NCBI GenBank assembly: GCA_944363535.1
Contig: CALVUG010000003.1
Location: forward strand, 307 to 64,306
DNA: 64,000 nt
Origin: an uncultured Bacilli bacterium
GTDB lineage: Bacteria > Bacillota_I > Bacilli_A > RFN20 > CAG-826
Direction of reading: 5' to 3'
The stretch's first letter is position 1; the number at the start of each line of letters is the position of its first letter. The notes under the pieces are model-generated. The model was given only the letters and a program-made list of their open reading frames with translations. It was not told the origin of the DNA and searched no databases. A program made the position numbers and the translations under genes. This document shows, piece by piece, positions 5,366-55,290 of the stretch.

Positions 5366-5368
5366 CCT

Positions 5369-6889: not shown

Positions 6890-7445
6890 AGGTGGCTATC
6901 TCCTTTCCGTGGAGCGATTTTTTTAAGTTTTTTAATTTACGTTTGATGGACATGTCGATGATACGGTCACCACACACGACTTTAAATCCACCGATTAAAG
7001 ATGTATCGATGCGATTAGATAAATAGACTTCATAACCTAATTTTTTCTTCACGTAATCTTTAATCTTTTCTTGGCTTTCTTCACTTAAGGGATAAGTCGA
7101 ATAAATGTAACCTTCTCTTATACCTAAATAAAGATGAGCTTGATGGATGAAATCATCTAAGATGTAGATAATTTTTCTTGCTCTTCCGTTTTTAGCGATG
7201 AGGAAGATGAGTTTCTTCAAAGGAATTAAAGATAAATCTTTCAACGTTTCATCTAAAATTTTCATCTTCTTTTCATCATCTAATTTATAAGAAGCAAGAA
7301 TGTAGATGAATTGTTCGTTATAAAAGAGTGCATGACGTATCTTTTTTACTTCTTTTAAGTAAGTTTCTAGAGCGTTTTCTTCCCTAGCGACCGCAAAGAG
7401 CGCACTAGCGTATTTAGAGGCAATTTCATCGATCATGATCTTCAC
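6879..7445 (-). CDS. atpH: ATP synthase delta (OSCP) subunit
   Basis: 188 aa between atpF and atpA. N-terminal [12 protein letters not shown] is OSCP-like. Confidence 0.75.
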
Positions 7446-16643: not shown

Positions 16644-16644
16644 C

Positions 16645-24280: not shown

Positions 24281-24871
24281 TTATACGACGAGATATTGTT
24301 CTTTTTTTAATTTAATTTCATGAAAAGTTAAATCTAATTTACTTACATCTTTTAAACTAAGAAATGAAATTTTAGCATATTCTTCTAGATGATGTTCTTC
24401 TTTAATTTCAACGTCCTTTTTAGCTTTTAATTTCGCTAAATTTTCATAACTTAACGTCGCTTCGTAGAGATAAGCTTTTTCTTGCTTACCAAACTTAGCC
24501 TCATCGATAAGTAACTTCACCGTATTTAAATACGTTCTTAAAAGTCTAGAAGCACCAAGTAAGGTCCCACCAAAATAACGTACGACGATGATGAGATAAC
24601 AATTTAGATGTAACTTCTCACACATCTCTAAAACTGGCTTAGAAAAAGTATTATGCGGCTCTCCGTCCCCACTTGCGTAACTTACATCAAATATCTTATA
24701 AGCGTAACAATAATGCCGTGCTTTTGGATATTTAATTTTTATTTCTTCTAATATCTTAGTGACATCATCTTTCGTTTCAATCGGCCACAAAACACCAATG
24801 AAACGCGATTTGAGCACTTCTAAAGTCACTTCAAAGGAGTCTTTGGGGACGATGTAATTTAAATAGCTCAT
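24281..24871 (-). CDS. yigZ: IMPACT/YigZ family protein (UPF0029)
   Basis: 196 aa. Motifs SRFIG, ARHYCYAYKI and SGDGEPHNT fit the YigZ N-terminal domain. The start overlaps the stop of the 2103-aa gene (ATGA-type, 4 nt). Confidence 0.8.
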   Translation of the reverse strand: MSYLNYIVPKDSFEVTLEVLKSRFIGVLWPIETKDDVTKILEEIKIKYPKARHYCYAYKIFDVSYASGDGEPHNTFSKPVLEMCEKLHLNCYLIIVVRYFGGTLLGASRLLRTYLNTVKLLIDEAKFGKQEKAYLYEATLSYENLAKLKAKKDVEIKEEHHLEEYAKISFLSLKDVSKLDLTFHEIKLKKEQYLVV

Positions 24872-36121: not shown

Positions 36122-37906
36122 TTATTCGACGGTGACAGATTTGGCTAAATTACGAGGCTTATCGACGTTTAAGCCTTTTTTGATAGCTGTATAGTAAGTT
36201 AAATATTGCGCGACCATCACTTTCGACATCGGAGAAAGATATAAAGGTGAATCGCAAACGATGATATCATCATCTTCTAAAGATAAAGATTTAGAGGAGA
36301 CGACGAAAACTCTTCCCCCTCTAGCCTTAATTTCTTGGAAGCCATTTCTCATCTGATGGGCAGTCTTTTCTTCCGAGATGAAAGCGATGGAAGGAAATTC
36401 ATTAGAAATTAAAGCGATTGGACCATGCTTTAGTTCGCCCGCTTGCACCGCACTCGCGTTAATGTAGGTCACTTCTTTCATCTTCAAAGCCCCTTCTAAG
36501 GCGGTCGAATAATCGATGCCGCGCCCTAAGAAGAACAAATTATCGTACTTAGCGATTTCTTCGGCAACAGGGATAAACTTTTCTTTATGAGCGATGATCT
36601 TTTCTAGACATTTAACTTGCTCTCTTAATTCATTAAAATGATGACCTTTAATGAAAGCTGCATCTAAAAGCATGAAAAGCAATGCAAGTTCAGATTGATA
36701 AACTTTCGTCGAAGCGACGCTTACTTCCACGCCGCTATAAAGATTTAAATAATATTCAGCTTTTCTAGCTAATGAAGAATATCGATTGTTCGTAATCGTC
36801 AAAAGATGATAAGCATTATCTTGAATGAAAGGGACACATTTTAATAAATCCGCTGTCTCTCCGCTTTGCGAGATGATGATGAACAAAGGATTTTTTGTCA
36901 TCACTACCGGGTGATAGGCAAATTCACTAGCGATGTATGCACTAGCGAGTTTTCCTTTTGACCTTAATAAGTCGACAGCAATTAAAGAAGCATGATAACT
37001 TGTCCCGCACGCTAAGAAGATAATTTCGCTCGCCCTTTCGATAATTTTTAAAAGTTTAGGATCGAACGTATATTCATCATGAAAAACATAGTTTTTAATT
37101 AATCTTTCGATGCAACTCGGTGTCTCTTCAATTTCTTTTAACATGAAATGTGGATAGCCATTAAGAGAAACATCAAGATTTTCGCTACTTCTTTCCACGA
37201 GTTTAACTTTTTCTTCTTGTCCTTGGAAATAGACGTGAATTTCATCTTTAGTTATATAGCCAAATCTTCCATCTTTTAAATCGACGAATTCACGAGAAAT
37301 TTCCGCCATCGGAATTTGATCGCTCGCTAAGTAATTCGCTCCTTGGCCTTTACCGATAAGTAAAGGTGATAAGTTCTTAGCAAAATAAAGGCGATGGGGT
37401 TCAGCAAGATGAACGATGGCTAAAGAATAAGAACCATTTAATTTAGAAGTCGCCATCTCGATAGCTTCGAGCATATCTTTCGCACTAGTGGATAGATAAT
37501 AAGCAATTAAATTAGCGACAATTTCGCTATCGGTGTTCCCATAAAATGAAATTTTATTCGCAGCTAAAAATTCTCTTATTTGGACGAAGTTTTCAATGAC
37601 TCCGTTGTGCACTAAAATAACTTTACGGTCGAAGGAATAAACCGGGTGACAATTTGAAATGGTAACGCCTCCATGCGTCGCCCAACGCGTATGAGCGATA
37701 CCGACGCTAGGAGTGTGTTCGAAAGTCGTAGGTACTTGTTTATCTAAATTATCGACGACGCCGACGCTTCTTTCGAGTAAAGAAAAAGAACCATCCGTCA
37801 CAAATAAACCACAAGAATCGTACCCACGATATTCAAGTTTACGTAAACCATTTAGTAAATAATCACGAAAATCAAGCGCTCCACAAGCGCCAACAATGCC
37901 ACACAT
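36122..37906 (-). CDS. glmS: Glutamine--fructose-6-phosphate aminotransferase
   Basis: 594 aa. N-terminal MCGIVG nucleophile, two SIS domains, C-terminal ...KSVTVE. Confidence 0.95.
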   Translation of the reverse strand: MCGIVGACGALDFRDYLLNGLRKLEYRGYDSCGLFVTDGSFSLLERSVGVVDNLDKQVPTTFEHTPSVGIAHTRWATHGGVTISNCHPVYSFDRKVILVHNGVIENFVQIREFLAANKISFYGNTDSEIVANLIAYYLSTSAKDMLEAIEMATSKLNGSYSLAIVHLAEPHRLYFAKNLSPLLIGKGQGANYLASDQIPMAEISREFVDLKDGRFGYITKDEIHVYFQGQEEKVKLVERSSENLDVSLNGYPHFMLKEIEETPSCIERLIKNYVFHDEYTFDPKLLKIIERASEIIFLACGTSYHASLIAVDLLRSKGKLASAYIASEFAYHPVVMTKNPLFIIISQSGETADLLKCVPFIQDNAYHLLTITNNRYSSLARKAEYYLNLYSGVEVSVASTKVYQSELALLFMLLDAAFIKGHHFNELREQVKCLEKIIAHKEKFIPVAEEIAKYDNLFFLGRGIDYSTALEGALKMKEVTYINASAVQAGELKHGPIALISNEFPSIAFISEEKTAHQMRNGFQEIKARGGRVFVVSSKSLSLEDDDIIVCDSPLYLSPMSKVMVAQYLTYYTAIKKGLNVDKPRNLAKSVTVE

Positions 37907-37914
37907 ATTCGATA

Positions 37915-39273
37915 CTAATCCTCGCTTTCAATAACTTGATAAATACTTTGACAAACCTTTTTACAAAGCTCATTAGTCTTGGCTTCGCACATGATGCGGA
38001 TGAGAGGTTCCGTCCCACTTTTGCGGACAAAAATCCTTCCTTCTTCCGCTAATAAGTCTTCATTTTCTTTTAAGATAGCTTTAACTTTATCATTTTCTAA
38101 AACATGAGAGTCTTTATCTTTCAAACGATAATTGATCATGAGCTGTGGATAGATAGTAATCTCTTTAAGAACTTCATCAAAACTATGACCTAACCTAACA
38201 AATTCATTTAATAAAGCGACCATCGTAAGGAATCCATCACCCGTTTCCAGTTTATCGTATTGGATGATGTGACCCGATTGTTCGCCTCCTAAGATGTAAC
38301 CATGTTCTTTCAAACTTCTTTGGACGTATTTATCGCCGACATCCGTTTGAACGACATCAATCTTTTCATTTTCTAAAGCTTTTAATAAACCGATGTTAGA
38401 CATCTTAGTGACGACGATGGCGTTACCTATCAATTTATTTTGTTCTTTTAAAGCTTTTGCTAAGATGAATAAAGTTTTATCGCCATCGATCACTTCGCCA
38501 TCGTGATCGACGCACATCAAACGGTCCGCATCGCCATCGAAGGCAAAGCCAAGGTCATATTGACCTTCTTTCATCTTAGAAATTAATCCTTCTAGATGCG
38601 TGCTACCAGCATGAAGATTGATATTTTTGCCATCTGGCTTATCGTTAATAAAAGTGACATCGGCCCCTAAGGAAGCAAAAAACTTCGGAGCGATCGCACT
38701 TGCGGAACCATTGGCTAAATCAAGTAATAAACGTAGACCTTTTAAATCGCTCGTCAAGTAAGATTTAAGAAATTCAATATATTCATCTTTTACTTCGTTA
38801 GATGGGACAAGCTTTCCTGCTCTAGCAAACTTTTTGATATCTAAATCATCTTTTTCTTTTTCGATGTAGCCTTCAATTTCTACTTCTAAATCTTCGCTAA
38901 TCTTCGAACCCGTATGAGAAAATACTTTTATCCCATTATCGGTGTAAGGATTATGGGAAGCAGAAATCATGATACCATAGGTATAATGTCTTTTATTGAT
39001 TAGATAAGAAACACTAGGAGTGGTCGTCACCCCTAAGTCGTAGACATTCGAGCCAGATTTAATGATACCTTCCACTAAGGCATCTAAAAGTAAGGAACCA
39101 CTAAATCTTGTATCTCTTCCGATGACGATATGATTTCTTTTACCCGCAACATTAAAACCGATGTAACGTCCGATGCGATAAGCCATCTCACGTGTGAGAC
39201 CTTCGCCGTAGACTCCTCTAATTCCATCCGTACCAAATAGGTGCGGTTTAACTTCATTACATTTCTTCATCAT
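37915..39273 (-). CDS. glmM: Phosphoglucosamine mutase
   Basis: FGTDGIRG and phosphoserine loop SASHNP. Start chosen at ATG 39273 (SD GAGGAAG), giving ~452 aa. The track's longer ORF to 39384 runs through the cdaA 3' end. Confidence 0.9.
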   Translation of the reverse strand: MMKKCNEVKPHLFGTDGIRGVYGEGLTREMAYRIGRYIGFNVAGKRNHIVIGRDTRFSGSLLLDALVEGIIKSGSNVYDLGVTTTPSVSYLINKRHYTYGIMISASHNPYTDNGIKVFSHTGSKISEDLEVEIEGYIEKEKDDLDIKKFARAGKLVPSNEVKDEYIEFLKSYLTSDLKGLRLLLDLANGSASAIAPKFFASLGADVTFINDKPDGKNINLHAGSTHLEGLISKMKEGQYDLGFAFDGDADRLMCVDHDGEVIDGDKTLFILAKALKEQNKLIGNAIVVTKMSNIGLLKALENEKIDVVQTDVGDKYVQRSLKEHGYILGGEQSGHIIQYDKLETGDGFLTMVALLNEFVRLGHSFDEVLKEITIYPQLMINYRLKDKDSHVLENDKVKAILKENEDLLAEEGRIFVRKSGTEPLIRIMCEAKTNELCKKVCQSIYQVIESED

Positions 39274-40060
39274 TTTCTTCCTCTTCATCTCGCATATAAT
39301 TTTCGAAGACACGGAGGAAGTTATCGAGTTGTACGGATTCGAGTTCGCCTCCATAAGCGATGGAAATACGGCCTGTTTCTTCACTTACGACGACTGTCAC
39401 CGCATCAGAAATTTCGCTGATGCCGATAGCCGCACGGTGTCTAGAACCATATTTACCCGTGAGCGGTTTCGTCGTCGGAGTAAAGTAGACGCTTGCAGCG
39501 ACGATCTTATCACCGTGGATGACGACCGCCCCATCGTGTAAGCGTGTGCCGGGATAGAAGATTGTGACGAGTAATTCCATCGTCACCGGTGCTTCGACGA
39601 CCGTTCCACTGCGCATCACATCGCTTAAGGGTGTATGTCTTTCAAAAGTGATGAGAGCCCCAATCTTATGTTTAGATAAATATTGGACTGCATCATCAAT
39701 CGTTTTATAAAGAGCTTCGCGGTCAAAAATTCTTTCTACTTTATTTCTTTTCCCAACGTTTAAAAGACGTTTGCCTTTAAGTGGATTAGCGAGGTAACTT
39801 CTTAAAGTAGAAATGTTAACAGTAAAGACAAGAATTAATCCAGCGGCAAATAAGACGAAACAAACAATCGTCAAAATATCCATGTTGAAGATGAAACTTA
39901 ACACAGTAAGGCCCGCTAGAGAACAAGAATAAATATAGACCGGAACACGCTTGATGAACTTGAAGATGATGAAAAGGAAAAATCCTAACAAGAGAACGAG
40001 AATAATCAACGTGAGAATATTTTGCCAAATCGTAAAATCTTTGATGACGCTTCCTGGCAT
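39257..40060 (-). CDS. cdaA: Diadenylate cyclase, membrane-bound CdaA type
   Basis: 267 aa with three N-terminal TM helices. DAC domain motifs GALITFER, DGAVVI and GSRHRAAIGISE. Confidence 0.9.
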   Translation of the reverse strand: MPGSVIKDFTIWQNILTLIILVLLLGFFLFIIFKFIKRVPVYIYSCSLAGLTVLSFIFNMDILTIVCFVLFAAGLILVFTVNISTLRSYLANPLKGKRLLNVGKRNKVERIFDREALYKTIDDAVQYLSKHKIGALITFERHTPLSDVMRSGTVVEAPVTMELLVTIFYPGTRLHDGAVVIHGDKIVAASVYFTPTTKPLTGKYGSRHRAAIGISEISDAVTVVVSEETGRISIAYGGELESVQLDNFLRVFENYMRDEEEENDEEM

Positions 40061-41777: not shown

Positions 41778-42278
41778 ATGAAAAAGAAAAATAAAGAACT
41801 AAAAGGTCTTCGTCTATTTTATTTTGTGATGAAACAGACACATATGCTTCCTATCATTGGAGGGTTTATCATCTATTTCTTCATCATGGCTACCATCATC
41901 TTCTTTACTTCTAACACGAGTGTTACTCAATATTCTAATATAGAAAATTATGGCGATGCTTTATGGTTTAGTTTCGCTAGTGTTTTTACTATCGGTTATG
42001 GCGATATTTGGGTAAGCGGAGTGGTCGGAAGAATTCTAACTGTTCTTCTTGTCATCTATGGCGTTTTTATCATCGCTATCATCCCAGCTGTGTTCTTAAC
42101 ATTTTATCAAGAAAAAATGAATCAAAAATTTAATTCTTCCGCTTCTTATCTTTTAGATAAATTAGAGCACCTTGAAGAACTAAGTAAAGAAGAATTAAAA
42201 AATCTCTCTTCTGACATCAAGAATTATCGACGTAGAAAAGAGATGAAAAGGAAGGTAAAAGAAGAAAATACAAATTAA
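41778..42278 (+). CDS. Two-TM potassium channel without a fused RCK domain
   Basis: 166 aa. Selectivity filter TIGYGD between two TM helices, then a short coiled C-terminal tail. Confidence 0.8.
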   Translation: MKKKNKELKGLRLFYFVMKQTHMLPIIGGFIIYFFIMATIIFFTSNTSVTQYSNIENYGDALWFSFASVFTIGYGDIWVSGVVGRILTVLLVIYGVFIIAIIPAVFLTFYQEKMNQKFNSSASYLLDKLEHLEELSKEELKNLSSDIKNYRRRKEMKRKVKEENTN

Positions 42279-42934
42279 GAGAATATTTCTTCTAATTCTT
42301 TAAACAAATTATCGCTTGCGAAGAACATAATTCTATCTCCTGGATAAATCATCGTTTGACCATTTGGGACAATCAAATCTTCGCCGTGATATATAGCGAT
42401 CATCAAAGCGGACTTCGGTAGATGAAGTTCGCTTACTTTTTTACCGACCGCGACACTACCTTCATTCGCCACTAATTGGACGATTGAATGCCCGCCTTTG
42501 GAAAGCTTTAACAAAGTTAAGAATGAACGCATGCTCATTTCTTCGACGACTAGATGACCAATAATATCAGCTTGGTTAATCGATGCATCCACACCCATCC
42601 CGAAATTAAATAACCAAGCATTATTAGGATTATTGACTCGAGCGATGACTCTTGGGGCTTGGAATTCAAATTTAGCGATCATTGAACAAACTAAGTTCGT
42701 TTCATCGTGTCCCGTCACACAAGCGACGACGTCAGCCTTATCGATATGGACAGTCGCTAAGACGTTTGGATCACTTGCGTCACCAAATAAGACGTGTTCT
42801 TCACCAAATTTTTTCATTAAATTAGGAATGTGCGATTGATTGAAATCAATGACCATGAAATCGCAATCATTTTTCTTTAAGAGGTCGGCCATGTAAGTAC
42901 CGATTTGTCCACCACCAATAATTAATGCATACAT
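42275..42934 (-). CDS. RCK/TrkA-type K+ transport regulatory protein (TrkA_N + TrkA_C)
   Basis: 219 aa. Rossmann IIGGGQIGTYMA and a C-terminal RCK_C-like half (IYPGDRIMFF). Confidence 0.8.
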   Translation of the reverse strand: MYALIIGGGQIGTYMADLLKKNDCDFMVIDFNQSHIPNLMKKFGEEHVLFGDASDPNVLATVHIDKADVVACVTGHDETNLVCSMIAKFEFQAPRVIARVNNPNNAWLFNFGMGVDASINQADIIGHLVVEEMSMRSFLTLLKLSKGGHSIVQLVANEGSVAVGKKVSELHLPKSALMIAIYHGEDLIVPNGQTMIYPGDRIMFFASDNLFKELEEIFS

Positions 42935-42949
42935 AATTATTCTTTCCTC

Positions 42950-43600
42950 CTAAATGCCTAAAATATTTTTTAAAGTACGTTTCGCGGAAGTACGCGTCAC
43001 TAGATATAAAATATCACCAGTTTGGATGACATCTTCTTTCTTTGGAATAAAAGAAGTATCATTTCTTACGATAGCGATAACTTTAATATTTTGTTCTTCT
43101 TCAATTTCATCTAACGTCATCCCTTCGACGCTTGGGGTCGCAGTGATACGCACGATTTCAGTCGAAGCATCGCGTCCTAGAAGCGCTAAAGAGTCGAAAG
43201 TATTGAAGGAAACGAGTTCGATCGCTCTATCGACAGCGAAGCCAGTGACGGAAATTGTTCTAATACCTAAAGCTTCAAAAATCTTCGCTTTCCTTGGATT
43301 ATAAATACGAGCGATGACGTGTTTTACGTAGTAAATATCTTTGGCAATCTTAGCCATCACGCTATTTATTTCATCACTTCCCGTCGCAGCGACGAAAATG
43401 TCCGTGTATTCAATTTCCGCTTCTTCTAAAATTTCCTTATCCATCCCGTTTCCGACGATTTGGGTACCGTTAAAATCCGCGCCTAAATCGTAAAATTTAT
43501 CGGGTGATAAATCGATGATGGTAATCGTATGGCCACGCCTATATAACTCCAAGGCTAAAGCGGAACCAAATTTTCCTGAACCGACGATGAGTACTTTCAT
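42950..43600 (-). CDS. RCK/TrkA-type K+ transport regulatory protein (second copy)
   Basis: 216 aa. IVGSGKFGSALA and C-terminal IQTGDILYLV. Lies 22 nt after the ATPase stop and 15 nt before the next trkA-like gene. Confidence 0.8.
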   Translation of the reverse strand: MKVLIVGSGKFGSALALELYRRGHTITIIDLSPDKFYDLGADFNGTQIVGNGMDKEILEEAEIEYTDIFVAATGSDEINSVMAKIAKDIYYVKHVIARIYNPRKAKIFEALGIRTISVTGFAVDRAIELVSFNTFDSLALLGRDASTEIVRITATPSVEGMTLDEIEEEQNIKVIAIVRNDTSFIPKKEDVIQTGDILYLVTRTSAKRTLKNILGI

Positions 43601-43622
43601 AAAACTATTCCTCTACTTTCTT

Positions 43623-46496
43623 TCATTTTATAACATTTTTACGTCTTTTAAGATATTTTCTTAATTCTTCGATGCCGATGACGATAAATGGGAAGGTAAA
43701 CATTACTAACCAAATACGATAATCATAAATAGCATTCGTCTCTAAGACGACCGTATTTAACATCGGAACGAATAAGACGATGATAAGTAAGGCAATTTCG
43801 GCGACGATACCAATTAAAATTGAACGATTGGAGAATAAGCCAACCTTAAAGGTCGAATCTTCTTCCGTACGACAATTGAAGACCATCCCGACTTGACAGA
43901 AGACGATACTTGCTAAGATGACGCTCGTCGAAGACATCCAATATTCGCTTCCTTGTGCGGGGAAACCAGTGAATGAACCAGTTTGGAAATAGACGTACAT
44001 AAAGTAAGCGAAGACCGCTAAAGCGGAAGTGACTAAACCTAGATAGAACGCCCTTCCATAAAGTTTTTTCGTAATCAAATGTTCATCTTTCTTACGCGGT
44101 GGCTTATCCATGATGCCAGGCATCGGTTTTTCTGAACCTAAGCCTAAAGCTGGAAGCATATCCGTCCCTAAGTCGATGATTAAAACTTCTAAGATAGTAA
44201 GCATCATCGGCACTCTTCCGATAGTGAGTAATGGAATTAAGACGGGAATCGCTTCTGGAATGTTCGAATTGAAGATGTAAGTGATAAATTTCTTGATGTT
44301 AGCAAAGATCGTTCTTCCTTCTTCGATAGCGGTGACGATGGAAGCAAAATTATCATCGGTTAAAATCATGTCCGCGGCGTCTTTTGCCACGTCCGTTCCA
44401 GCGATGCCCATCGCGATACCAATGTCCGCTTTTTTAAGCGCCGGTGCGTCGTTAACGCCATCTCCTGTCACAGCGACAATTTCACCAAGTTCTTGTAGAC
44501 AAGAAACGATACGATATTTTTGTTCAGGTGCCATCCTTGCAAAGATGATTTCCCCTTTAAGTAAAGTCTTTAGTTCATCATCGTTCATGGCATTAAGTTC
44601 CGCCCCACTTACGACGTGCGGATCTTCGCCTTTAACGATGCCGATATTTCTTGCTATCGCTAAAGCGGTCAAAGAATAATCGCCCGTAATCATGATAATT
44701 TTAATGCCAGCTTTATGGCACGTCGCAATCGCATTTTCAATCCCTTCTCTCGGTGGATCTTGCATCGCTTCTAAACCAAGGAAAGTTAGATCTTGTTCGA
44801 TGAGTTCAGGCGTATAATCGGAAATAGCTAGAGGAAGTTTATCGCTACGCTTAATGTAACGAAGCGCCATCCCTAAAACTCTTAAGCCATTCCTAGCGTA
44901 TTTATCATTTGCCGCCATGGCTTTCTTTTTATCATCTTCGTTAATTTCTCTAATCTTACCGTTTTCTAAAATGTATTTACATTTATCAATTAACTCTTTT
45001 GGCGAACCTTTCGTATAAGCGATACGCTGCGCCCCATCGACTTCGCGGTCGAGTTGGTGGATAGTCGTCATCATCTTTCTTACGCTATCGAAAGGTAAGG
45101 CTCTAATACGAGGCGTAATTCTTGTAATATTTGGCCCACTTACTAAACCTTTTTCTGCGACGACACCTAAACAAGCTTCAGTAGGATCACCTAAGACGAT
45201 AAATCTATTCTCTTCTTTCTTATGGACGATTTTGGCATCACTACATAACGCTCCACAAGTAAGTAACGCTTTTAAATCTTTATTATTTAAAGCCGTAATT
45301 GGCTCTTTTCTTTCATTTAAAATTTCCCCTTTTAAAGAATAACCACTTCCGGTGACGCTAAGTTCGCCCGTCGGTAAATATAAATATTTAACGGTCATTT
45401 CATTCTTCGTCAAAGTGCCCGTTTTATCTGAACAAATGACAGTCGTCGAACCAAGCGTTTCAGCCTTAGATAAAGATTTCACTAATGCCCCTTCTTTAGC
45501 AAGTCTTTGGACAGCTTTTGCTAACGATAAAGAAACTGTGGGCAGTAACCCTTCAGGAATGAAAGCGACGATCATCCCTAAGGCGACGACAAATTGTTGT
45601 AAATACATGCTCGGTTTATCAAAACCTTCGACGACACCATAGGTGATAACTGAAAAGATAAAGACAATTAAACCGATACTTAAAGCAATTAAAGCAATTG
45701 TTTTCGTCATCTTTTCTACTTCGTTTTCTAAAGGCGATTTTGATTCACCAATTTCTTGCGTTAAAGAAGCAATCTTACCAAATTCCGTGTCCATCGCCGT
45801 GGCGATGACGACGCATCTTGCCGTGCCAGTAGAAACTGACGTACCAGCGAAGACGATATTTTTCGCACGAATGGAAGTTTCCGGTAATTCTTTATGTGGT
45901 TCGCTCGTCTTCCTTGAAGGCGTCGCTTCTCCATCTAACGCACTTTGATTACACGTTAAATCGTTGCAGTTCAAGATGCGCGCATCCGCGCTTATTCTAT
46001 CCCCTTCAGAAAGGATGATGATATCACCGGCGACTAAATCTTTCGCTTCGATTTGTTGTTCTTGGCCGTCTCTAATGACACGGGCGTAACTTGGAAGCAT
46101 CTTCGAAAGTGCTTCGGTCGATTTCATCGCTTTATGTTGTTGAAAAAATGAAAATAGACCGTTGATGATATTAACTAAAAATATCGCGATAGCGAGATAA
46201 AGCATCCCTGGATCTTTTAAAGGTCCGATCGAAGATTCACTTTCTTCAGCGATGAAGCAAGCGACGATAGAAATCGTCCCAGCAATCCAAAGGAGGATCG
46301 CTAACATGGAGGTGAAGTTTTTAAAAAAGACTTTAAAAGTATTTTCTTTTTTCTTCTTAGCGATAATATTAGGCCCATTTTTTAATAATCTTTCTTCCGC
46401 TTCTTTCGCGCTGAGCCCATGTGCGGAAGTATTAAATTCATCGTAGATTTGTCTCGATGTCGCTTTATATATTTTATTTAATCGTTCTTGTTCCAT
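43623..46496 (-). CDS. P2-type cation-transporting ATPase with Na,K-ATPase-like (P2C) ion-site residues
   Basis: 957 aa. Motifs DKTGTLT, TGDGVNDAPALK, TM4 IPEGLLPTV, TM5 YIFNSNIPEAIP and TM6 IDLGTDMLPALGLG. Confidence 0.9.
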   Translation of the reverse strand: MEQERLNKIYKATSRQIYDEFNTSAHGLSAKEAEERLLKNGPNIIAKKKKENTFKVFFKNFTSMLAILLWIAGTISIVACFIAEESESSIGPLKDPGMLYLAIAIFLVNIINGLFSFFQQHKAMKSTEALSKMLPSYARVIRDGQEQQIEAKDLVAGDIIILSEGDRISADARILNCNDLTCNQSALDGEATPSRKTSEPHKELPETSIRAKNIVFAGTSVSTGTARCVVIATAMDTEFGKIASLTQEIGESKSPLENEVEKMTKTIALIALSIGLIVFIFSVITYGVVEGFDKPSMYLQQFVVALGMIVAFIPEGLLPTVSLSLAKAVQRLAKEGALVKSLSKAETLGSTTVICSDKTGTLTKNEMTVKYLYLPTGELSVTGSGYSLKGEILNERKEPITALNNKDLKALLTCGALCSDAKIVHKKEENRFIVLGDPTEACLGVVAEKGLVSGPNITRITPRIRALPFDSVRKMMTTIHQLDREVDGAQRIAYTKGSPKELIDKCKYILENGKIREINEDDKKKAMAANDKYARNGLRVLGMALRYIKRSDKLPLAISDYTPELIEQDLTFLGLEAMQDPPREGIENAIATCHKAGIKIIMITGDYSLTALAIARNIGIVKGEDPHVVSGAELNAMNDDELKTLLKGEIIFARMAPEQKYRIVSCLQELGEIVAVTGDGVNDAPALKKADIGIAMGIAGTDVAKDAADMILTDDNFASIVTAIEEGRTIFANIKKFITYIFNSNIPEAIPVLIPLLTIGRVPMMLTILEVLIIDLGTDMLPALGLGSEKPMPGIMDKPPRKKDEHLITKKLYGRAFYLGLVTSALAVFAYFMYVYFQTGSFTGFPAQGSEYWMSSTSVILASIVFCQVGMVFNCRTEEDSTFKVGLFSNRSILIGIVAEIALLIIVLFVPMLNTVVLETNAIYDYRIWLVMFTFPFIVIGIEELRKYLKRRKNVIK

Positions 46497-48015: not shown

Positions 48016-49725
48016 TTACTTCAATTTATTGAGAGTTAAAACGAAACTTTTGGCTAATAATTTATCTTCTTTATAGTTATGGCTAAGAAGAATTTTTTCA
48101 TCATCTATTTGGTAAGCAGAAACATCTTTGCTCATATTGATGATAAGTTTAATTTCTTTTTCTTCATCAAATCTTTTTAAGATGAATAAGTTCTTATCGC
48201 AATCTACACTAATACCTAAGCTATTAATATTTTGTTCTTCGTGAATTTTTGCTAAGGCTTTGATCATCTTTAAAATATCGAAGTTCCACTGACTTTCATC
48301 CCAATCGAAGCACTTACGATTATTTGGGTCCGCTAAGCCAGTTAGACCAATCTCATCACCGTAATATAAACAAGGCACACCAATGTAAGTATAAAGTAAG
48401 GCATAACCGATAAATAACTTATCAATATCTTCCTTACATTCGCTATAAAAACGCGGGATATCGTGCGAAGAAAGTAAGTTCAATAAATTGTAATTTATCG
48501 GCGTTTTGTAGCGAAAATAGTTGCTCACTAAGCGATTTTTAAACTTTATTGCGTCAATTCTTTCATAAGCGACGTAATCTAAAACATCACGCGTAAAAGC
48601 GTAATTCATGATGCTATCAAATTCGAAACCATCATTTAAAAATGCATGTGCGTCATGCCAATTTTCGCCGAGTAAGACGATATTAGCGTTAATCTTATTT
48701 AATTCGTTTCTTAACCTAATCCAAAATGAATGAGGAATTTCATCGCTCACGTCGAGTCGATAACCATCGATATTGAAATTGATGACGTAATGCTTCGCAG
48801 CTTCAATTAAATAATCTTGCACTTCTAAATTATTTAGATTAAGTCTAGGCAAGAATTTTGCGGTACCAAAAGATTCATAATTCCCTTTTTTCATATCGAC
48901 TTCATCCCCATCGATATAAAACCAATCGTAATATTTAGATTTCTTTCCATATTTTTTAACATCTTCAAAAGCAAAGAAATGCGTGGAGACGTGATTGTAA
49001 ACACCATCAAGTAAGATAATCATTTTCCTTTTATGCACTTCATCGACAAGATTTTTTAAATCGATATCGCTTCCGAAGTCACTTGCGACTTTAAAATAAT
49101 CAATTGTGTCATATTTATGATTCGTTTCAGCTTCACAAATAGGCGTAAGATATAAAGCATTCACATTTAAAGACTCGATGTAATCAAGTTTATCTAAAAT
49201 GCCTTTTAACGTTCCGCCCGCGATAGAAGAAGAAGTAATATCCTCACCCCATCTTATGTTGATGCGTGGATTTAAATTATCCTCTTTATTAAATCTATCG
49301 ACGAATATTTGATAGAAGCGTCTATTCGCTAATACTGGGCTCACTTTAATTAGATCATTCTTATTGATATAAGAAACTTGGAAGAAATTAAATTGCCCTT
49401 GCTTGATATCGTAACTATCGCTTACCCCAAATTCACTAAAGTATTTGATACTTCCATCTTTCAAAGTAATTTTAAAGACGTAAGCCAGTCTTTTATCAGT
49501 AAGCTTAAGTCTAATGACGTAATAATCTTTACTATCATCACTCGCAACTTTCTTCATTTCTAAAAAATTAACAAATTTATGGAACTTATATTTTTCGTTA
49601 TACATAAGTTCCACCTTAACGATATCATCATCTTTTTTCGTGATTAATCTAATTTCTACTTCATTTATAGACAAAGCAAAAGAATAAAGCGAATCCGCGA
49701 TATGTCTTAAACTAGAATTTTCCAT
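48016..49725 (-). CDS. Cytoplasmic GH13 alpha-glucosidase of the neopullulanase/cyclomaltodextrinase/maltogenic-amylase type (paralogue 1)
   Basis: 569 aa with no signal peptide. GH13 regions DGVYNHV, DGYRLDVSDEIP, GENWHD and LLSSHDIPRF. N-terminal extra domain. Confidence 0.85.
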   Translation of the reverse strand: MENSSLRHIADSLYSFALSINEVEIRLITKKDDDIVKVELMYNEKYKFHKFVNFLEMKKVASDDSKDYYVIRLKLTDKRLAYVFKITLKDGSIKYFSEFGVSDSYDIKQGQFNFFQVSYINKNDLIKVSPVLANRRFYQIFVDRFNKEDNLNPRINIRWGEDITSSSIAGGTLKGILDKLDYIESLNVNALYLTPICEAETNHKYDTIDYFKVASDFGSDIDLKNLVDEVHKRKMIILLDGVYNHVSTHFFAFEDVKKYGKKSKYYDWFYIDGDEVDMKKGNYESFGTAKFLPRLNLNNLEVQDYLIEAAKHYVINFNIDGYRLDVSDEIPHSFWIRLRNELNKINANIVLLGENWHDAHAFLNDGFEFDSIMNYAFTRDVLDYVAYERIDAIKFKNRLVSNYFRYKTPINYNLLNLLSSHDIPRFYSECKEDIDKLFIGYALLYTYIGVPCLYYGDEIGLTGLADPNNRKCFDWDESQWNFDILKMIKALAKIHEEQNINSLGISVDCDKNLFILKRFDEEKEIKLIINMSKDVSAYQIDDEKILLSHNYKEDKLLAKSFVLTLNKLK

Positions 49726-49824: not shown

Positions 49825-51555
49825 TTATTTCTTAATTTTCTTCACTTTCGTATATAGGAGCATACCGTTGAAGAAATCGTCATTACGATCGATTCTTAAA
49901 GTTAAATATTCACCTTTTTGATCATGGCTTACTAAAAGCATCTTCGCGTTTAAATCATAAAGTTTTTCGACGAGCAAATATTTATGCGCTTTGACGAAAG
50001 CTTTATCTTCGTGCATAACGTAAAATTCTTGACCAATTTTTTTCGTTTCGACATCGATAATAGGCTTACTAATTTCATCATTGACCATAATCACATTATC
50101 GTCTTTATCGCACACACTTAACGTATTTAAAGGCGCGTAAAGTTTAACTTTATCCCCCACTTTAAAATGCTTATCTTTATCGCACATGAAAGTGATACGA
50201 ATGAAGTCTTTTTTCATCCTTGCAAAGTAGACGTTAGATTTGGAACGAACATCTTTGGCTCTTATTTCCACTTCCACTTCAAAATCATCGTCATTTTCGC
50301 GATTTAATTTAAAAGCTTCTGAAGGCACTCTAATCTTACCTTCATCGCTACCAAATTCGTTCACTAAGGACTTATTTAAGAAATCTTTGATCGTATATTT
50401 CTTGTCGATGATCAGATCCGCAGCTTCAAGTTTTAAAGTGACGGGGATGTAGTTATAATCGTTAATTTTTAAGATGGAAACTTCATCTTCATTAAATAGA
50501 TGAATCTTATCTTTATTCACTTTTAGATAGATAGGACCTTTTAAATCATCGCCCATATCCATCTTCAAAGATACGATAGTGTTCTCTTCTCTTCCCGGTA
50601 AAGATAGATATAATAAAGTCTCATTACCGAGTTTTTCCACTAAGTCGATTTTTTCGACGTAGAAATCGTAATCTTCTTTACTGGCGATATCAAAATCTGA
50701 AGGTCTAATCCCTAAAATTAAATTTTGTTCATCGTAACCTGCCATCATCTTATTTTTCGTCTTCTCAGATAAAGTTAAAGAAGTGTTTTCATCTAAGATT
50801 AATTTATCGCCTTTTAAAGTAACTTTAAAAATGTTCATCTGAGGCGAACCTAAGAAAGTGGCGACGAAAACGTTGACAGGATGTTCATATAAATTGACCG
50901 GCGTATCGATTTGTTGGACGAAACCATCTTTCATGACGACGATGCGATCCCCCATCGTCATCGCTTCAGTTTGATCGTGAGTGACGTAGATGAAAGTTCC
51001 CTCCACTTGCTTATGTAACTTAGAAATTTCGCTACGCATCTGGACGCGTAGTTTTGCGTCTAGATTACTAAGCGGCTCATCGAATAAGAAAGCTTTCGGG
51101 TTTCTAATTAAACATCTTCCTAAGGCGACTCTTTGCCTTTGCCCACCGCTAAGTTCTTTTGGCTTTCTTTCTAATAATTCTTCAATGTTAAGTAACTTCG
51201 CGACGCTATTAACTTTTTCTTTGATAACTTCTTTCTTTTCGTGATGACATTTTAAAGAATAACCAAGGTTATCAAAGACCGACATATGAGGATATAACGC
51301 ATAGTTTTGGAAAACCATAGCAATATCGCGGTCACGCGGTTCGATGTTATTCACTAACGTATCGCCGATATAAATTTTACCGGAAGTAATTTCTTCTAGA
51401 CCAGCGATCATCCGTAAAGTCGTCGATTTACCGCAGCCCGATGGGCCGACGAAGATGATGAATTCCCCATCTTCAATTTCTAAATTAAAATCTGATACGG
51501 CACGCACGTTGCCTTTATAAACTTTGGAGACGTCCACTAATGTAACTTTTGCCAT
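49825..51555 (-). CDS. MalK/MsmX-type sugar ABC ATPase with a ~217-aa C-terminal extension
   Basis: 576 aa. GPSGCGKST, LSGGQRQR and FLFDEPLSNLD. The canonical regulatory domain ends near ...KIHLFNEDE (aa ~358), followed by extra OB/TOBE-like sequence. Confidence 0.85.
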   Translation of the reverse strand: MAKVTLVDVSKVYKGNVRAVSDFNLEIEDGEFIIFVGPSGCGKSTTLRMIAGLEEITSGKIYIGDTLVNNIEPRDRDIAMVFQNYALYPHMSVFDNLGYSLKCHHEKKEVIKEKVNSVAKLLNIEELLERKPKELSGGQRQRVALGRCLIRNPKAFLFDEPLSNLDAKLRVQMRSEISKLHKQVEGTFIYVTHDQTEAMTMGDRIVVMKDGFVQQIDTPVNLYEHPVNVFVATFLGSPQMNIFKVTLKGDKLILDENTSLTLSEKTKNKMMAGYDEQNLILGIRPSDFDIASKEDYDFYVEKIDLVEKLGNETLLYLSLPGREENTIVSLKMDMGDDLKGPIYLKVNKDKIHLFNEDEVSILKINDYNYIPVTLKLEAADLIIDKKYTIKDFLNKSLVNEFGSDEGKIRVPSEAFKLNRENDDDFEVEVEIRAKDVRSKSNVYFARMKKDFIRITFMCDKDKHFKVGDKVKLYAPLNTLSVCDKDDNVIMVNDEISKPIIDVETKKIGQEFYVMHEDKAFVKAHKYLLVEKLYDLNAKMLLVSHDQKGEYLTLRIDRNDDFFNGMLLYTKVKKIKK

Positions 51556-51561
51556 AACTAA

Positions 51562-52434
51562 TTATCCTTTCACAGCACCGCTAGTCATACCATTGACCAT
51601 GTACTTAACTAAGAAGAAATATAAGACGACGATTGGAACAGCGATGAAGACGCTACCGGCGGCGAACCTAGCAAATTCGTCTTGCCCTAGTTGCATTAGA
51701 CCAACCGCGACGGTCCAATTGTCTTTTTCAATCAGCAATAATTTAGGAAGGATGAAATCTGACCACGGCCAAGTAAAACTTGTTAAAGCCGTATAGACGA
51801 TGATGGGTTTTGCCAAAGGCAAAGTGATAGTCGTAAATATTCTGGCATTCGTTGCCCCATCAATTTTGGCCGCTTCGTAAATCGATTGTGGAATCGTATC
51901 GAAGAAACCTTTTTGGACGAGGTAACCTAAAGGAGCGGTACAAGAATAAATTAAGACTAAACCCCAGATGTTATTGACGATGTTGAACTGCGTCATCAAA
52001 ATGTAAATGACCGTCATCCCCATGAAGCTTGGAAACATCGAAAGCACTAAAGCGGATTTCATCAAACCTTTCCTCGCTTTGAATTGGAAATAGGAGATGA
52101 CGTAAGCTGTGCCAATAATTAAAAGCGTAGAGAAAATACAATTGAAGATAGCGATCACTAAAGTATTTGCGAGCCACTGCGGATAATTGTGATTCGCCGT
52201 ATCGGTAAACAATTTGATGAAAGCGTCAAAAGAATAAGATTCGGGAAAAAACCCTGGGGTATCGTAAAGCGAACCAGTCGCTGAAAAGGAAGATAAGATG
52301 AGCCATAAGCATGGGAAAAGGAAAATAGCGCAGACGATAATTAAGACGCAATATATCGCTACCGCACCAAGAACTTTTTTTACCTTGTAATTCATCGCCT
52401 TAGTGCTCGACCGATTTAAAGTCATAGTTTTCAT
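51562..52434 (-). CDS. Maltodextrin ABC permease (MalG-like)
   Basis: 290 aa with 6 TM helices and EAA loop YEAAKIDGATNARIFTTITLP. Confidence 0.85.
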   Translation of the reverse strand: MKTMTLNRSSTKAMNYKVKKVLGAVAIYCVLIIVCAIFLFPCLWLILSSFSATGSLYDTPGFFPESYSFDAFIKLFTDTANHNYPQWLANTLVIAIFNCIFSTLLIIGTAYVISYFQFKARKGLMKSALVLSMFPSFMGMTVIYILMTQFNIVNNIWGLVLIYSCTAPLGYLVQKGFFDTIPQSIYEAAKIDGATNARIFTTITLPLAKPIIVYTALTSFTWPWSDFILPKLLLIEKDNWTVAVGLMQLGQDEFARFAAGSVFIAVPIVVLYFFLVKYMVNGMTSGAVKG

Positions 52435-53786
52435 CGGAAAGTATCCTCCTTCTTATAAGCTGGGGATTTAATGTATATAATTAAAGAAATAGACGAAGTA
52501 ATTATAAATATAATTAATGATATTGCTGCCCCAATCGAATAAAATTGATTATCAATGGAAAGACGATATAACCAGTTTATTAATAAATCCGTATCATTAG
52601 AAACAAAATATCCTTCCGTGGTCACCGTGGACCTTAAAAAGTAGAACACACCGAAGTTATTGAAATTACCGATGAAGGAAGTAATTAACGTTGGAGTCGT
52701 GGCGAAGATGACGAAAGGTAAAGTGATATCTTTAAATTGTCTAGCTGAGCCTGCGCCGTCAATTTTAGCGGCTTCGTAAAGATCGCTATTGATGTTACTT
52801 AAAATACCCGTCGCTAAGAGCATGACGCTAGGAATGGTAAGCCAAGCATTGATCATTAGACCGATAAATCTCGCCCACCACGTCCCATCTTCCGTTAAAA
52901 ACGGAATTGGACTTCCCCCATTAGAGGTAATCATATTGTTAATTGGGCCACCTTGTGCGAACATAAATTTGAAAGCCGTCAAGGTGATGAAACCCGGAAT
53001 AGCATACGCTAAAATAGGAAATAATCGCCAGAAGAATTTACCTTTGACAATCTTTTTATTAAGTAAGATTGCTAAAAGCAAACCTAAAACGTAATTTAAT
53101 AACGTCGTCGCCACAGCCCAAAGGATATTCCACCCTAAGATTTTGAAGAACGTCGGGCCAATTTCTCCTAAGGAAAAAATTTGGACGAAATTTTCTAATC
53201 CAACCCAATCCACTAAGACGGGAGGAATGTAAGGTTCACCATAATTTGTAAACGCCACTAAGATCATGAAGACGATTGGAATGACGCTAAAGATGATCGT
53301 GCCAAGTAATGGTAAGAATAAGACCGTCTTATAGAACTTCTTATCTAATAAGTCTTTTAAATCATCTTTAAATTTCTTGGGCTTTTCACCTTTCAACACT
53401 AATTTAGATGTATTGTTCGCGTCGCGAACATTAGAAATATAAAGTGCGATAAATAAGATTAAAAGGAAGACGGACATGAGGCCTAATAACATGAAGATGA
53501 CCGAATTATCGCCTTGTTTTCCAGTCCAAGGATCACCTTGTACCGTTCCTAAGGTAAATAGACCAACGATCCATTGGAAACCATAGATAGCAAAGAAAAG
53601 AATGCCTAAAATTTCTACACCTAAATACATGATGCCTCGGCCCACTTGACGATACATAAATTGGCCTAAGCCCATGAGGCTCATGCTCGCTTTCGTATTG
53701 GTATTTGCGACTTTGAAGAAGTTGATAAAATTCGTCCAAGAATCGCTTATTTTAATTCCTAATCTTCGAAAGGCTCTCTTCATCAA
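52431..53786 (-). CDS. Maltodextrin ABC permease (MalF-like)
   Basis: 451 aa with EAA loop YEAAKIDGAGSARQFKDITLP. Overlaps the malG-like start by 4 nt. Confidence 0.85.
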   Translation of the reverse strand: MMKRAFRRLGIKISDSWTNFINFFKVANTNTKASMSLMGLGQFMYRQVGRGIMYLGVEILGILFFAIYGFQWIVGLFTLGTVQGDPWTGKQGDNSVIFMLLGLMSVFLLILFIALYISNVRDANNTSKLVLKGEKPKKFKDDLKDLLDKKFYKTVLFLPLLGTIIFSVIPIVFMILVAFTNYGEPYIPPVLVDWVGLENFVQIFSLGEIGPTFFKILGWNILWAVATTLLNYVLGLLLAILLNKKIVKGKFFWRLFPILAYAIPGFITLTAFKFMFAQGGPINNMITSNGGSPIPFLTEDGTWWARFIGLMINAWLTIPSVMLLATGILSNINSDLYEAAKIDGAGSARQFKDITLPFVIFATTPTLITSFIGNFNNFGVFYFLRSTVTTEGYFVSNDTDLLINWLYRLSIDNQFYSIGAAISLIIFIITSSISLIIYIKSPAYKKEDTFR

Positions 53787-53826: not shown

Positions 53827-55290
53827 TTATCTATCTAATAAATGAATCGCATCGTAAATATCTTGCGATAATTGTTCTAAAGCGGCTTGAATCTTATCTA
53901 ACGTATCATATTTAGCATTCGCCCCGCGATTTGAATCCGCCGCCACATCGCCCATAAAAGAACCAGCTGGGGTCCACACTTGGTCGATAGCTTTAATTGA
54001 AGGCATAAGAACGATGCTACCGTTAGAGACGCGGTCGAAAAGTTGCTTCGAAAGTTCAGTCGATTCCGCCGAAACGTCACTTCTAGCCGGAGCAATTTGT
54101 AAAAATTCTTCTCTTAATTTCGCCATCTCATAAGACGTCGCGAAATTGATGAACGCTAAGGAAGCATTAGGATATTTCGTATAACTTGACATCGCATAGC
54201 CATTGATGCCACCCATCTGCTTACATTCGATCATTTCATCGCTAGGATTAATTAAATCACCATTCGCTGGTAAATCAGGGAATGGCACACCGATGACATT
54301 TTCTTCCGCTAAAGCGGTCGCTTCTTCTAAAGTTAAACCTTTTTCACTTTGATAAGTCGTCGCTAAGGTAGAAACGATGACGCTTCTTACATCAGGAGTA
54401 GTCACGCTAGAAAAATATTTACCTGACGCCATCGACCCAGAGATAGCAAGTTTTGCGCTATCATCGATACAAGCTGCACTCATCTCCGCGGCAAATTGTC
54501 TTAACACTTGGACGCCATATCTTGCATCACCAGCATGTAAACCAATATCGGTATCATCTCTATTATTATCACCAAATAAATAAGCTCCATAACTAAACAA
54601 ATAACCACTCGAGAAATAGAAATCATTTAAAGAAAATTCAAATCCATACTTAGTGTTATCTTGTTCGTGATAAATTTTTGAAAATTCATACAAATCTACT
54701 AAGTTTTCGACCATATCAGGGACACCATTTTGATCATCGTCCCAAGTCGTTTCCCAATCCGCAGGCAACAAATCTTTACGGTAATAGAGTAAAGGTGATT
54801 GGATGTTGAGCGGTACACCAAAGGTGTAATTTACTCCACCCACTTCCGCTTGATATGCCGCTTGAGCGGCGCTAGGAATAACTCCACTTTGATAAGCTTC
54901 GATCTTTTCAACGGGAAGAGGAGTGACATGCCTATCTTGCACCCAACCCATCAAGACGTCATTGGCCTGATAGATGACATCTGGCCCATAACCATAAGGC
55001 CCACTATTAGGAAGATCAGCAAATTCACCTTGATTGGCGTCGACTGCGGTGATGTTATATTCCGCATAAGCTTCATTAAATGCATCTAGCAATTCATCGA
55101 GATAGCCCATCTTAATAGCTGTATCGTTTTCGACGACTTTGATCGTCGCCCCGACTTCTAGATTCCCATCAAACTTATCGAAGACACTTCCGTCTCCGCC
55201 ATCATCTGGGTCATCGCCCCCACCGCAACTAGCGAGTCCAATAACTAAAGTCGAGAGCAATAAGGTAGAAATAAGTTTCTTACTTTTCAT
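53827..55290 (-). CDS. Sugar ABC solute-binding lipoprotein (MalE-like, long)
   Basis: 487 aa. Lipobox GLASC followed by a GGGDDPDDGGDG linker. Family-1 SBP-like. ATGA overlap with the upstream GH13 stop. Confidence 0.8.
   Translation of the reverse strand: MKSKKLISTLLLSTLVIGLASCGGGDDPDDGGDGSVFDKFDGNLEVGATIKVVENDTAIKMGYLDELLDAFNEAYAEYNITAVDANQGEFADLPNSGPYGYGPDVIYQANDVLMGWVQDRHVTPLPVEKIEAYQSGVIPSAAQAAYQAEVGGVNYTFGVPLNIQSPLLYYRKDLLPADWETTWDDDQNGVPDMVENLVDLYEFSKIYHEQDNTKYGFEFSLNDFYFSSGYLFSYGAYLFGDNNRDDTDIGLHAGDARYGVQVLRQFAAEMSAACIDDSAKLAISGSMASGKYFSSVTTPDVRSVIVSTLATTYQSEKGLTLEEATALAEENVIGVPFPDLPANGDLINPSDEMIECKQMGGINGYAMSSYTKYPNASLAFINFATSYEMAKLREEFLQIAPARSDVSAESTELSKQLFDRVSNGSIVLMPSIKAIDQVWTPAGSFMGDVAADSNRGANAKYDTLDKIQAALEQLSQDIYDAIHLLDR

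Follow-up and report, generated by a model that had tools for sequence, protein, structure and literature searches.

A Na,K-ATPase-like P-type pump and two TrkA-family RCK proteins share a gene cluster conserved across bacterial phyla

The locus

In a 64-kb stretch of contig CALVUG010000003.1 from an uncultured Bacilli bacterium (assembly GCA_944363535.1; hereafter, the window), a gene for a P2-type ATPase is followed on the same strand by two genes for stand-alone TrkA-family proteins, which we call RCK1 and RCK2 (Table 1). The ATPase and RCK1 genes are 22 nt apart, RCK1 and RCK2 are 15 nt apart, and the gene for a small K+ channel converges on RCK2, the two stop codons overlapping by 4 nt. 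A sequence-only reading of the window had described this layout and offered two hypotheses, namely that the three genes encode an RCK-regulated K+(/Na+) P-type pump, or that the RCK proteins complement the bare channel. Open reading frame (ORF) coordinates and Pfam assignments reproduced the layout exactly, and the motif strings quoted in that reading (DKTGTLT, TGDGVNDAPALK, IPEGLLPTVSLSLA, KKFITYIFNSNIPEAIPVLI, IIDLGTDMLPALGLGSEKP...IMDKPPR and TIGYGD) were all found in the translations.

The ATPase has the Pfam domains Cation_ATPase_N, E1-E2_ATPase, Cation_ATPase, Hydrolase and Cation_ATPase_C. Its DKTGT motif, its TGDGVNDAPALK hinge, its architecture of ten transmembrane (TM) helices and the Cation_ATPase_N and Cation_ATPase_C domains place it among the P2-type enzymes. 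Both RCK proteins combine a TrkA_N domain, a Rossmann fold with a GxGxxG motif, with a TrkA_C domain, and are thus RCK proteins of the TrkA/KtrA type. A scan of the operon for promoters and terminators returned nothing above shuffled background inside the intergenic gaps.

Conservation of the gene order

Around 30 loci, spread over five phyla and embedded among unrelated genes, share the order ATPase, RCK1, RCK2. RCK1 and then RCK2 lie directly downstream of pump homologues at 87, 70, 63, 58, 54 and 53% identity to that of the window, and in a scan of 80 loci, limited to one genome per species, RCK genes directly followed the pump in 21, with both genes readable in 19. The operon is present in Erysipelotrichaceae, in Bacillus marasmi and, within the Clostridia, in Lachnospiraceae and Clostridiaceae. 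It is also found in Coriobacteriia (Collinsella, Olsenella and other Coriobacteriaceae), in Thermoleophilia and Nitriliruptoraceae, in Anaerolineae and Chloroflexia, and in Geomonas and Rokuibacteriota. Wherever we found the operon, its gene order was invariable. The coupling is tight as well: in 13 of 25 loci a 4-nt overlap joins the ATPase stop codon to the RCK1 start codon, and the gap between RCK1 and RCK2 mostly measures 1–27 nt.

The three proteins also diverge together, with pairwise distances that correlate between ATPase and RCK1 (r = 0.76), ATPase and RCK2 (r = 0.66) and RCK1 and RCK2 (r = 0.78). When the search was reversed, two RCK1 homologues of about 216 amino acids (44% and 34% identity), chosen blind to their context, both proved to be encoded directly 3' of a P-type ATPase gene. 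The nearest tandem TrkA, of 467 amino acids, adjoins two TrkH genes. In a neighbour-joining tree, built without support values and without P2B or P2D references, most RCK-linked pumps formed one large clade, whose only members without adjacent RCK genes were some Lactobacillales and a few others; at its margin stood two Thermoleophilia loci, one of them grouped with archaeal sequences that have no RCK neighbours. Recurrence of one three-gene order in five phyla puts the arrangement far beyond chance, and we consider it very probable that ATPase, RCK1 and RCK2 are functionally linked. The linkage first read from a single window is therefore real.

The channel, by contrast, is a lineage-specific neighbour that lies outside the conserved module. 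Its closest match in the PDB is Lmo2059 of Listeria (4H33, E = 5e-12). A convergent channel gene is kept in L091, the relative at 87% identity, where the 56 residues visible at the contig end are 54% identical, and it is absent from the other 90 loci examined. A 161-amino-acid ORF that converges on RCK2 in loci L005 and L006 was considered as a counterpart and proved to be unrelated to the channel. Also dropped was a gene after RCK2 in L007 with FMN_red and Flavodoxin_2 similarity, considered as a KefF/G-like accessory; its match is mainly to FMN_red, and it was seen at that single locus.

The RCK pair and the halves of TrkA

RCK1 corresponds to positions 1–220 and RCK2 to positions 232–445 of the same 446-residue TrkA model (NF007039). 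RCK2 aligns with residues 236–450 of Vibrio TrkA at 129 bits, and for RCK1 the match to the first RCK of TrkA is slightly stronger than that to the second. The nucleotide motif of each protein (Table 1) is followed by an acidic residue. Given that RCK1 and RCK2 align to the N- and C-terminal halves of TrkA, respectively, the pair looks like a TrkA that has been split over two genes. In the window, the two genes share a reading frame and are separated by the RCK1 stop codon and the 15-nt gap. Their spacing and frame vary among relatives, with a 4-nt overlap in L007 and L051, which indicates that both are genuine genes, as opposed to a TrkA interrupted recently.

Two structures are among the top PDB matches of both RCK proteins: the single-chain TrkA of Vibrio (4J9U) and the TM1088A/TM1088B pair of Thermotoga maritima (3L4B). 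Like RCK1 and RCK2, TM1088A and TM1088B are the products of adjacent, translationally coupled RCK genes related to the halves of TrkA. They form a two-subunit 4+4 TrkA ring that works with the adjacent TrkH, TM1089 (PMC4380455). The two pairs differ in their partner gene, which is TrkH in T. maritima (PMC4380455) and a P-type ATPase here, and in their domains, because RCK_C is present in both subunits here and is absent from TM1088A.

Class and cation sites of the pump

The best PDB matches of the ATPase are the Na,K-ATPase alpha3 subunit (507 bits) and H,K-ATPases (502 bits), with lower scores for Listeria LMCA1 (462 bits), SERCA (434 bits) and SPCA (420 bits). In an alignment to human Na,K-ATPase alpha3 (8D3U), the residues of cation sites I and II correspond one to one (E315 to E327, S744 to S775, N745 to N776, E748 to E779, D775 to D804 and D779 to D808), as do Q868 to Q923 and E900 to E954, so that all eight residues are those of eukaryotic P2C alpha subunits. 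All eight are invariant in an alignment of 11 family members at 54–71% identity. At both positions that discriminate Na,K-ATPase from SERCA, the pump is of the Na,K type (D at N796 and Q at E908), and its TM4 reads PEGLLxTV, which is common to the alpha subunits of Na,K- and H,K-ATPases; the P2A-like controls aligned with them retain NLVTD and E. The earlier claim that sites I and II have Na,K-ATPase-type and not SERCA-type residues was thus borne out by alignment to both 8D3U and 2ZXE.

The resemblance does not extend to site III, in which Y740 (Y771 in Na,K-ATPase), Q868 and E900 are conserved while D926 is replaced by M871 and T774 by N743. With Asp926 changed to Met and Thr774 to Asn, the third Na+ site is probably absent; across the clade, the position equivalent to D926 is variable (M, A, V, E, Q or N). 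Eukaryotic P2C enzymes have an obligatory beta subunit and a long TM7–TM8 ectodomain loop, and the pump of the window has neither. About 23 residues separate the aligned stretches on either side of its TM7–TM8 loop, compared with about 47 in Na,K-ATPase, making the loop about half as long; the beta-subunit-binding loop is missing (there is no SYGQ region), and an ORF and Pfam survey found no beta-like gene in the operon.

Whole-protein profiles are less discriminating. The best NCBIfam match of the ATPase is the IIC model TIGR01106, at 607 bits and below the cut-off of 946, with the PMR1-type model at 572 bits. Elsewhere in the clade the two scores are tied or reversed (625 versus 662 bits in Collinsella, and 635 versus 673 in C. 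thermosuccinogenes), and among relatives the two scores lie within about 40 bits of each other in either direction, compared with a difference of 190 bits for a P2A-like control. The kdpB model TIGR01497 scores 110 bits only. The SNxPE/DLGTD pattern also extends over a very large radiation of prokaryotes, among them Nitrospira, cyanobacteria, proteobacteria and archaea, in which the pump has no RCK neighbours, and in the rough neighbour-joining tree a human Na,K-ATPase fragment fell inside this radiation and not beside the RCK-linked clade. Because the IIC and PMR1-type profiles tie, we describe the pump as Na,K-ATPase-like at its two central cation sites, as judged from aligned residues, and not as a proven P2C member; whole-protein scores do not assign it to that class. 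The label 'P2C-type' used in the sequence-only reading therefore holds for sites I and II. For the protein as a whole it goes too far, in view of the TIGR01106 score, the ties with the PMR1-type model, the missing Asp926 and beta loop, and the wide distribution of the site pattern. According to a recent review (PMC10654040), methanogens have pumps with sites of this type, whose function is still uncharacterised.

K+ transporters around the operon

TrkA-family proteins raise the question of a TrkH/KtrB partner, and the absence of one from the window had been noted earlier. Our scan agrees: no TrkH/KtrB-like ORF was found in the 64 kb, where the other polytopic membrane ORFs of at least 150 amino acids that were scanned encode two ABC permeases, ATP synthase subunit a, a CAAX protease and TraX, together with a 2103-amino-acid ORF that matched nothing in Pfam. 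TrkH/KtrB was likewise absent from the Pfam-annotated loci that carry the operon, and from the large membrane ORFs (300–700 amino acids with at least six hydrophobic segments) of 21 further loci, among which MFS-like, Amt-like and 500-amino-acid ORFs were judged by eye only.

A different membrane protein accompanies the pump in three Chloroflexi loci. There, one or two genes for membrane proteins of 605–632 amino acids directly precede the pump in the same orientation (L031:1973-3802 and 5078-6976, L033:5178-6995, and L059:1836-3659 and 5134-6951). The L033 protein has a single PDB match, the K+ transporter KimA (6S3K, E = 1.5e-15), which is of the same length, and its gene overlaps the start of the ATPase gene by 4 nt. 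These proteins had no Pfam or NCBIfam match at the thresholds used; the PDB search with the L033 protein suggests that they are KimA-like.

The Streptococcus mutans counterpart and cyclic di-AMP

The malR-malQ-glgP-pacL-trk-trkB locus of Streptococcus mutans is orthologous to the operon and has the same gene order. The pumps are about 50% identical, and identity is 37% for RCK1 (E = 4e-51) and 34% for RCK2 (E = 3e-53). SMU_1561–1563 have been listed as a putative K+ system, 'Trk1' (PMC7082836). The pacL and trkB genes were induced together under conditions that the authors read as osmotic stress (PMC2957427). Another study lists pacL and trk together among up-regulated genes (PMC9513430). The literature handles Trk1 as a Trk/KtrA-like system, and we found no Trk1 paper that treats the P-type ATPase as the membrane partner or deals with its Na,K-ATPase-like sites or cross-phylum conservation. 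The window organism is a different, uncultured low-GC Firmicute, and its operon has the additional K+ channel neighbour. In one S. mutans genome (GCA_020530485.1), the pacL allele encodes 840 amino acids (L092:6001-8523) and, compared with the window pump, misses about 80 residues of the nucleotide-binding domain (around positions 430–510 of the window pump), which may be a strain-specific in-frame deletion.

The S. mutans locus also provides a link to cyclic di-AMP (c-di-AMP). SMU_1562, the orthologue of RCK1, is cabPA, reported in three papers as one of two c-di-AMP-binding TrkA-family proteins of the species (PMC10281425, PMC5575661 and PMC12453120). Its product is also reported to bind the response regulator VicR (PMC5575661 and PMC10243994). 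In the window, the diadenylate cyclase gene cdaA is on the same strand, 2.2 kb past RCK2, and two converging genes and a PgpA-like gene stand between. In one other lineage, whose pump is 58% identical to that of the window, the same strand carries a CdaA-type DAC gene 363 nt after RCK2 (L008:12604-13419; also in L009). With Rfam gathering thresholds, no ydaO (c-di-AMP) riboswitch was detected upstream of the operon, either in the window or in the 13 related loci scanned.

As for the surroundings of cdaA itself, glmM comes directly after it and glmS next (36122-37906); no cdaR-like gene intervenes (37915-40060, minus strand). The longest glmM ORF overlaps the 3' end of cdaA, and the true glmM start is therefore probably internal.

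Model and alternatives

We propose that the three genes would form one operon encoding a single device for K+ homeostasis. Its membrane part would be a P2 ATPase with two cation sites of the Na,K-ATPase type, no Na+-specific third site and no need of a beta subunit, and this pump would most likely use ATP to export Na+ or H+ and import K+. By analogy with the 4+4 ring of TM1088A/B or with RCK dimers, the two RCK proteins most likely hetero-oligomerise, and their assembly would bind adenine nucleotides, possibly also c-di-AMP, and switch the pump on or off. The conserved linkage, the Na,K-type residues at sites I and II and the lack of an accompanying TrkH/KtrB favour the first hypothesis of the sequence-only reading, an RCK-regulated K+(/Na+) P-type pump, and we lean, on balance and with modest confidence, towards this full model. 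We infer the direct contact between RCK proteins and pump, the transported ions and their direction, and the regulatory ligand. A more specific form of the model, in which RCK1 and RCK2 would be a dedicated hetero-oligomeric subunit on the cytoplasmic headpiece and would make the enzyme a nucleotide- and/or c-di-AMP-gated primary K+ pump, is put forward tentatively, at slightly less than even confidence.

Known systems offer partial parallels. KhtTU and KefC/KefF are precedents for stand-alone RCK/KTN proteins that regulate transporters other than TrkH/KtrB, and for the ability of c-di-AMP to act through RCK_C (PMC10117811); their membrane partner is a secondary CPA2 antiporter, whereas here it would be a primary, ATP-driven pump. 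KdpFABC likewise achieves ATP-driven K+ uptake in bacteria around a P-type ATPase. KdpB, however, is a P1A enzyme that acts through the channel-like KdpA, whereas KdpA, KdpC and KdpF are all missing here and the K+ sites are apparently in the pump itself.

RCK domains are standard cytoplasmic switches of K+ channels, Trk/Ktr transporters and some antiporters, and P-type ATPases are controlled through terminal autoinhibitory domains or small membrane peptides. We know of no documented P-type ATPase under RCK control, and this is the first of several points that weigh against the proposed regulation. It is not obvious where a four-fold RCK ring would dock on a P-type ATPase, and a search for clade-specific residues that might mark a docking surface on RCK-linked pumps gave only six scattered positions, which are not interpretable. 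None of the 150 best RCK1 relatives is fused to an ATPase, the longest matches being tandem TrkA proteins of about 470 amino acids. Moreover, some Lactobacillales pumps of the same clade have no adjacent RCK genes (L024:6974-9790, L093:6001-8781, L019 and L022), including those of S. ratti, Limosilactobacillus and a very abundant streptococcal cluster of 7161 member sequences, which indicates that the pump can work without RCK genes beside it; S. mutans does have them, and the pattern looks like secondary loss or relocation of the regulators. Because the clade is not firmly P2C by whole-protein profiles, ion specificity is read from the site residues alone. In S. mutans, Trk2 (trkA-trkH) and not Trk1 is reported to be the main K+ uptake route (PMC7082836, citing Binepal 2016).

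The c-di-AMP link has a further negative of its own. The signature of c-di-AMP-binding RCK_C domains, (I/L)(I/L)X2DX1RX5N(I/L)(I/L), as given in PMC10117811 (citing Schrecker 2019), was found in none of 28 RCK1 and none of 26 RCK2 sequences, even with a relaxed pattern. Since S. mutans CabPA, a reported c-di-AMP binder, also has no such signature, this test is uninformative. The connection to c-di-AMP that had been suggested from the nearby cdaA gene thus gains from the identity of the S. mutans RCK1 orthologue and from the DAC gene that follows the operon in another lineage, while the signature and the riboswitch are missing; we regard it as plausible but indirect.

The most serious alternative is that the RCK pair gates a TrkH/KtrB encoded elsewhere in the genome and that the ATPase is only expressed alongside it, for instance to extrude, and so recycle, the Na+ that comes in with K+. 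The Na+-ATPase operon of Enterococcus hirae, which carries the KtrB-like NtpJ, illustrates such a pairing. Both RCK proteins are unmistakably of the TrkA family, their nearest tandem TrkA relative is encoded beside TrkH genes, the two-subunit ring of TM1088A/B serves TrkH TM1089 (PMC4380455), and our search for TrkH/KtrB was confined to the window and the operon loci. Against this, no TrkH/KtrB was found near the operon in any of the three sets searched, the ATPase is the constant partner over five phyla, often with overlapping stop and start codons, and the RCK proteins co-diverge with it. In addition, the sole trkH described in S. mutans has its own adjacent trkA (Trk2, PMC7082836). We therefore rate a distant TrkH/KtrB partner as unlikely.

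The pump might instead export Ca2+ or another non-K+ ion, as a P2A/PMR1-kind enzyme, with the RCK proteins acting mainly as c-di-AMP-dependent signalling adaptors, in the manner reported for CabPA and VicR, and not regulating the pump. Several members of the clade do score higher with the PMR1-type than with the IIC model, and some databases label relatives as calcium- or magnesium-transporting ATPases. The site residues, however, are unlike every Ca2+ pump pattern (D at N796, Q at E908 and SNxPE in place of SNVGE), the P2A-like controls have NLVTD and E at these places, and the putative KimA-like K+ transporter shares the operon in Chloroflexi. The operon is also kept in phyla that have no VicR-type biofilm circuits, which argues for a role in transport, and a Ca2+ exporter with signalling adaptors seems to us quite improbable. 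Least probable of all, to the point of being very hard to credit, is that the RCK proteins are soluble gating subunits of the adjacent channel, in line with the second hypothesis of the earlier reading, and that the ATPase is unrelated to them. MthK does use separately translated soluble RCK subunits, and the channel gene converges on RCK2 with an overlap, an arrangement repeated in L091. Yet the channel is on the opposite strand, it is of the minimal Lmo2059 type that works without RCK domains, and all other loci with the RCK pair have no channel; the pair tracks the ATPase and not the channel. With the channel retained only in the window and in its 87%-identical relative, MthK-like complementation is not supported.

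Other features of the window

The coordinates of the operon, its motifs and its neighbours are collected in Table 1.

Table 1. Genes and motifs of the ATPase–RCK locus (window coordinates)
Feature	Position	Strand	Basis or remark
P2-type ATPase, 957 amino acids	43623..46496	-	ORF call and Pfam
RCK1, 216 amino acids	42950..43600	-	TrkA_N and TrkA_C; GSGKFG nucleotide motif; orthologue of S. mutans SMU_1562 (CabPA)
RCK2, 219 amino acids	42275..42934	-	TrkA_N and TrkA_C; GGGQIG motif; orthologue of S. mutans SMU_1561 (TrkB)
Minimal 2-TM K+ channel, 166 amino acids, TIGYGD, Lmo2059-like	41778..42278	+	Ion_trans_2
Diadenylate cyclase CdaA (context only)	39257..40060	-	DAC domain, TIGR00159
DKTGT phosphorylation motif, D357–T361	45414..45428	-	Translation; invariant columns in family alignment
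TM5 motif S744-N745-I-P-E748, equivalent to Na,K-ATPase S775/N776/E779	44253..44267	-	Alignment to 8D3U and 2ZXE
TM6 motif D775-L-G-T-D779, equivalent to Na,K-ATPase D804/D808 (SERCA: N796/D800)	44160..44174	-	Alignment
TM8 Q868 to M871; Q868 equivalent to Na,K-ATPase Q923 (SERCA E908), M871 at site-III Asp926	43884..43895	-	Second matched stretch of alignment

Beyond this locus, the window contains a 2103-amino-acid ORF (24868-31179, minus strand) that has about seven hydrophobic segments by prediction and matched nothing in Pfam at E <= 0.001. A stretch of low GC content (13512-18966, minus strand; 27%, compared with about 37% elsewhere) carries an AddA/AddB-type helicase–nuclease pair, made up of a UvrD helicase of 1074 amino acids and a PD-(D/E)XK nuclease of 773 amino acids, and a DUF5677 gene (12425-13534) adjoins this pair. 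Two paralogous ORFs of about 570 amino acids with near-identical N termini (48016-49725 and 55287-56999, minus strand) stand on either side of a sugar ABC transporter cluster, which consists of an ATPase (49825-51555), permeases (51562-53786) and a probable binding protein (53827-55290). The positional counterpart in L091, an ORF located upstream of the P-type ATPase, has Alpha-amylase_N and Alpha-amylase domains.

Implications

Part of this system is already known: the cluster has a name in one species, S. mutans (Trk1), where c-di-AMP binding by the RCK1-type protein is known. In the literature that we could search, we found nothing on the P-type ATPase as the conserved membrane partner, on the conservation of the operon across phyla, on the split-TrkA nature of the RCK pair or on the Na,K-ATPase-type sites of the pump.

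If the RCK-regulated pump model is correct, it would represent a new regulatory architecture for primary pumps and the first P-type ATPase under RCK control. It would account for the 'Trk1' locus of S. mutans, hitherto unexplained, and for the c-di-AMP receptor CabPA encoded there, and would provide a bacterial model for the role of prokaryotic relatives of Na,K-ATPase. The operon would also offer an experimentally tractable bacterial entry to a question raised in PMC10654040, namely what prokaryotic pumps with Na,K-ATPase-type sites transport. It is carried by many anaerobes of the gut and mouth, including Collinsella, Clostridia, Erysipelotrichaceae and S. mutans, for which K+ and osmotic homeostasis bears on fitness.

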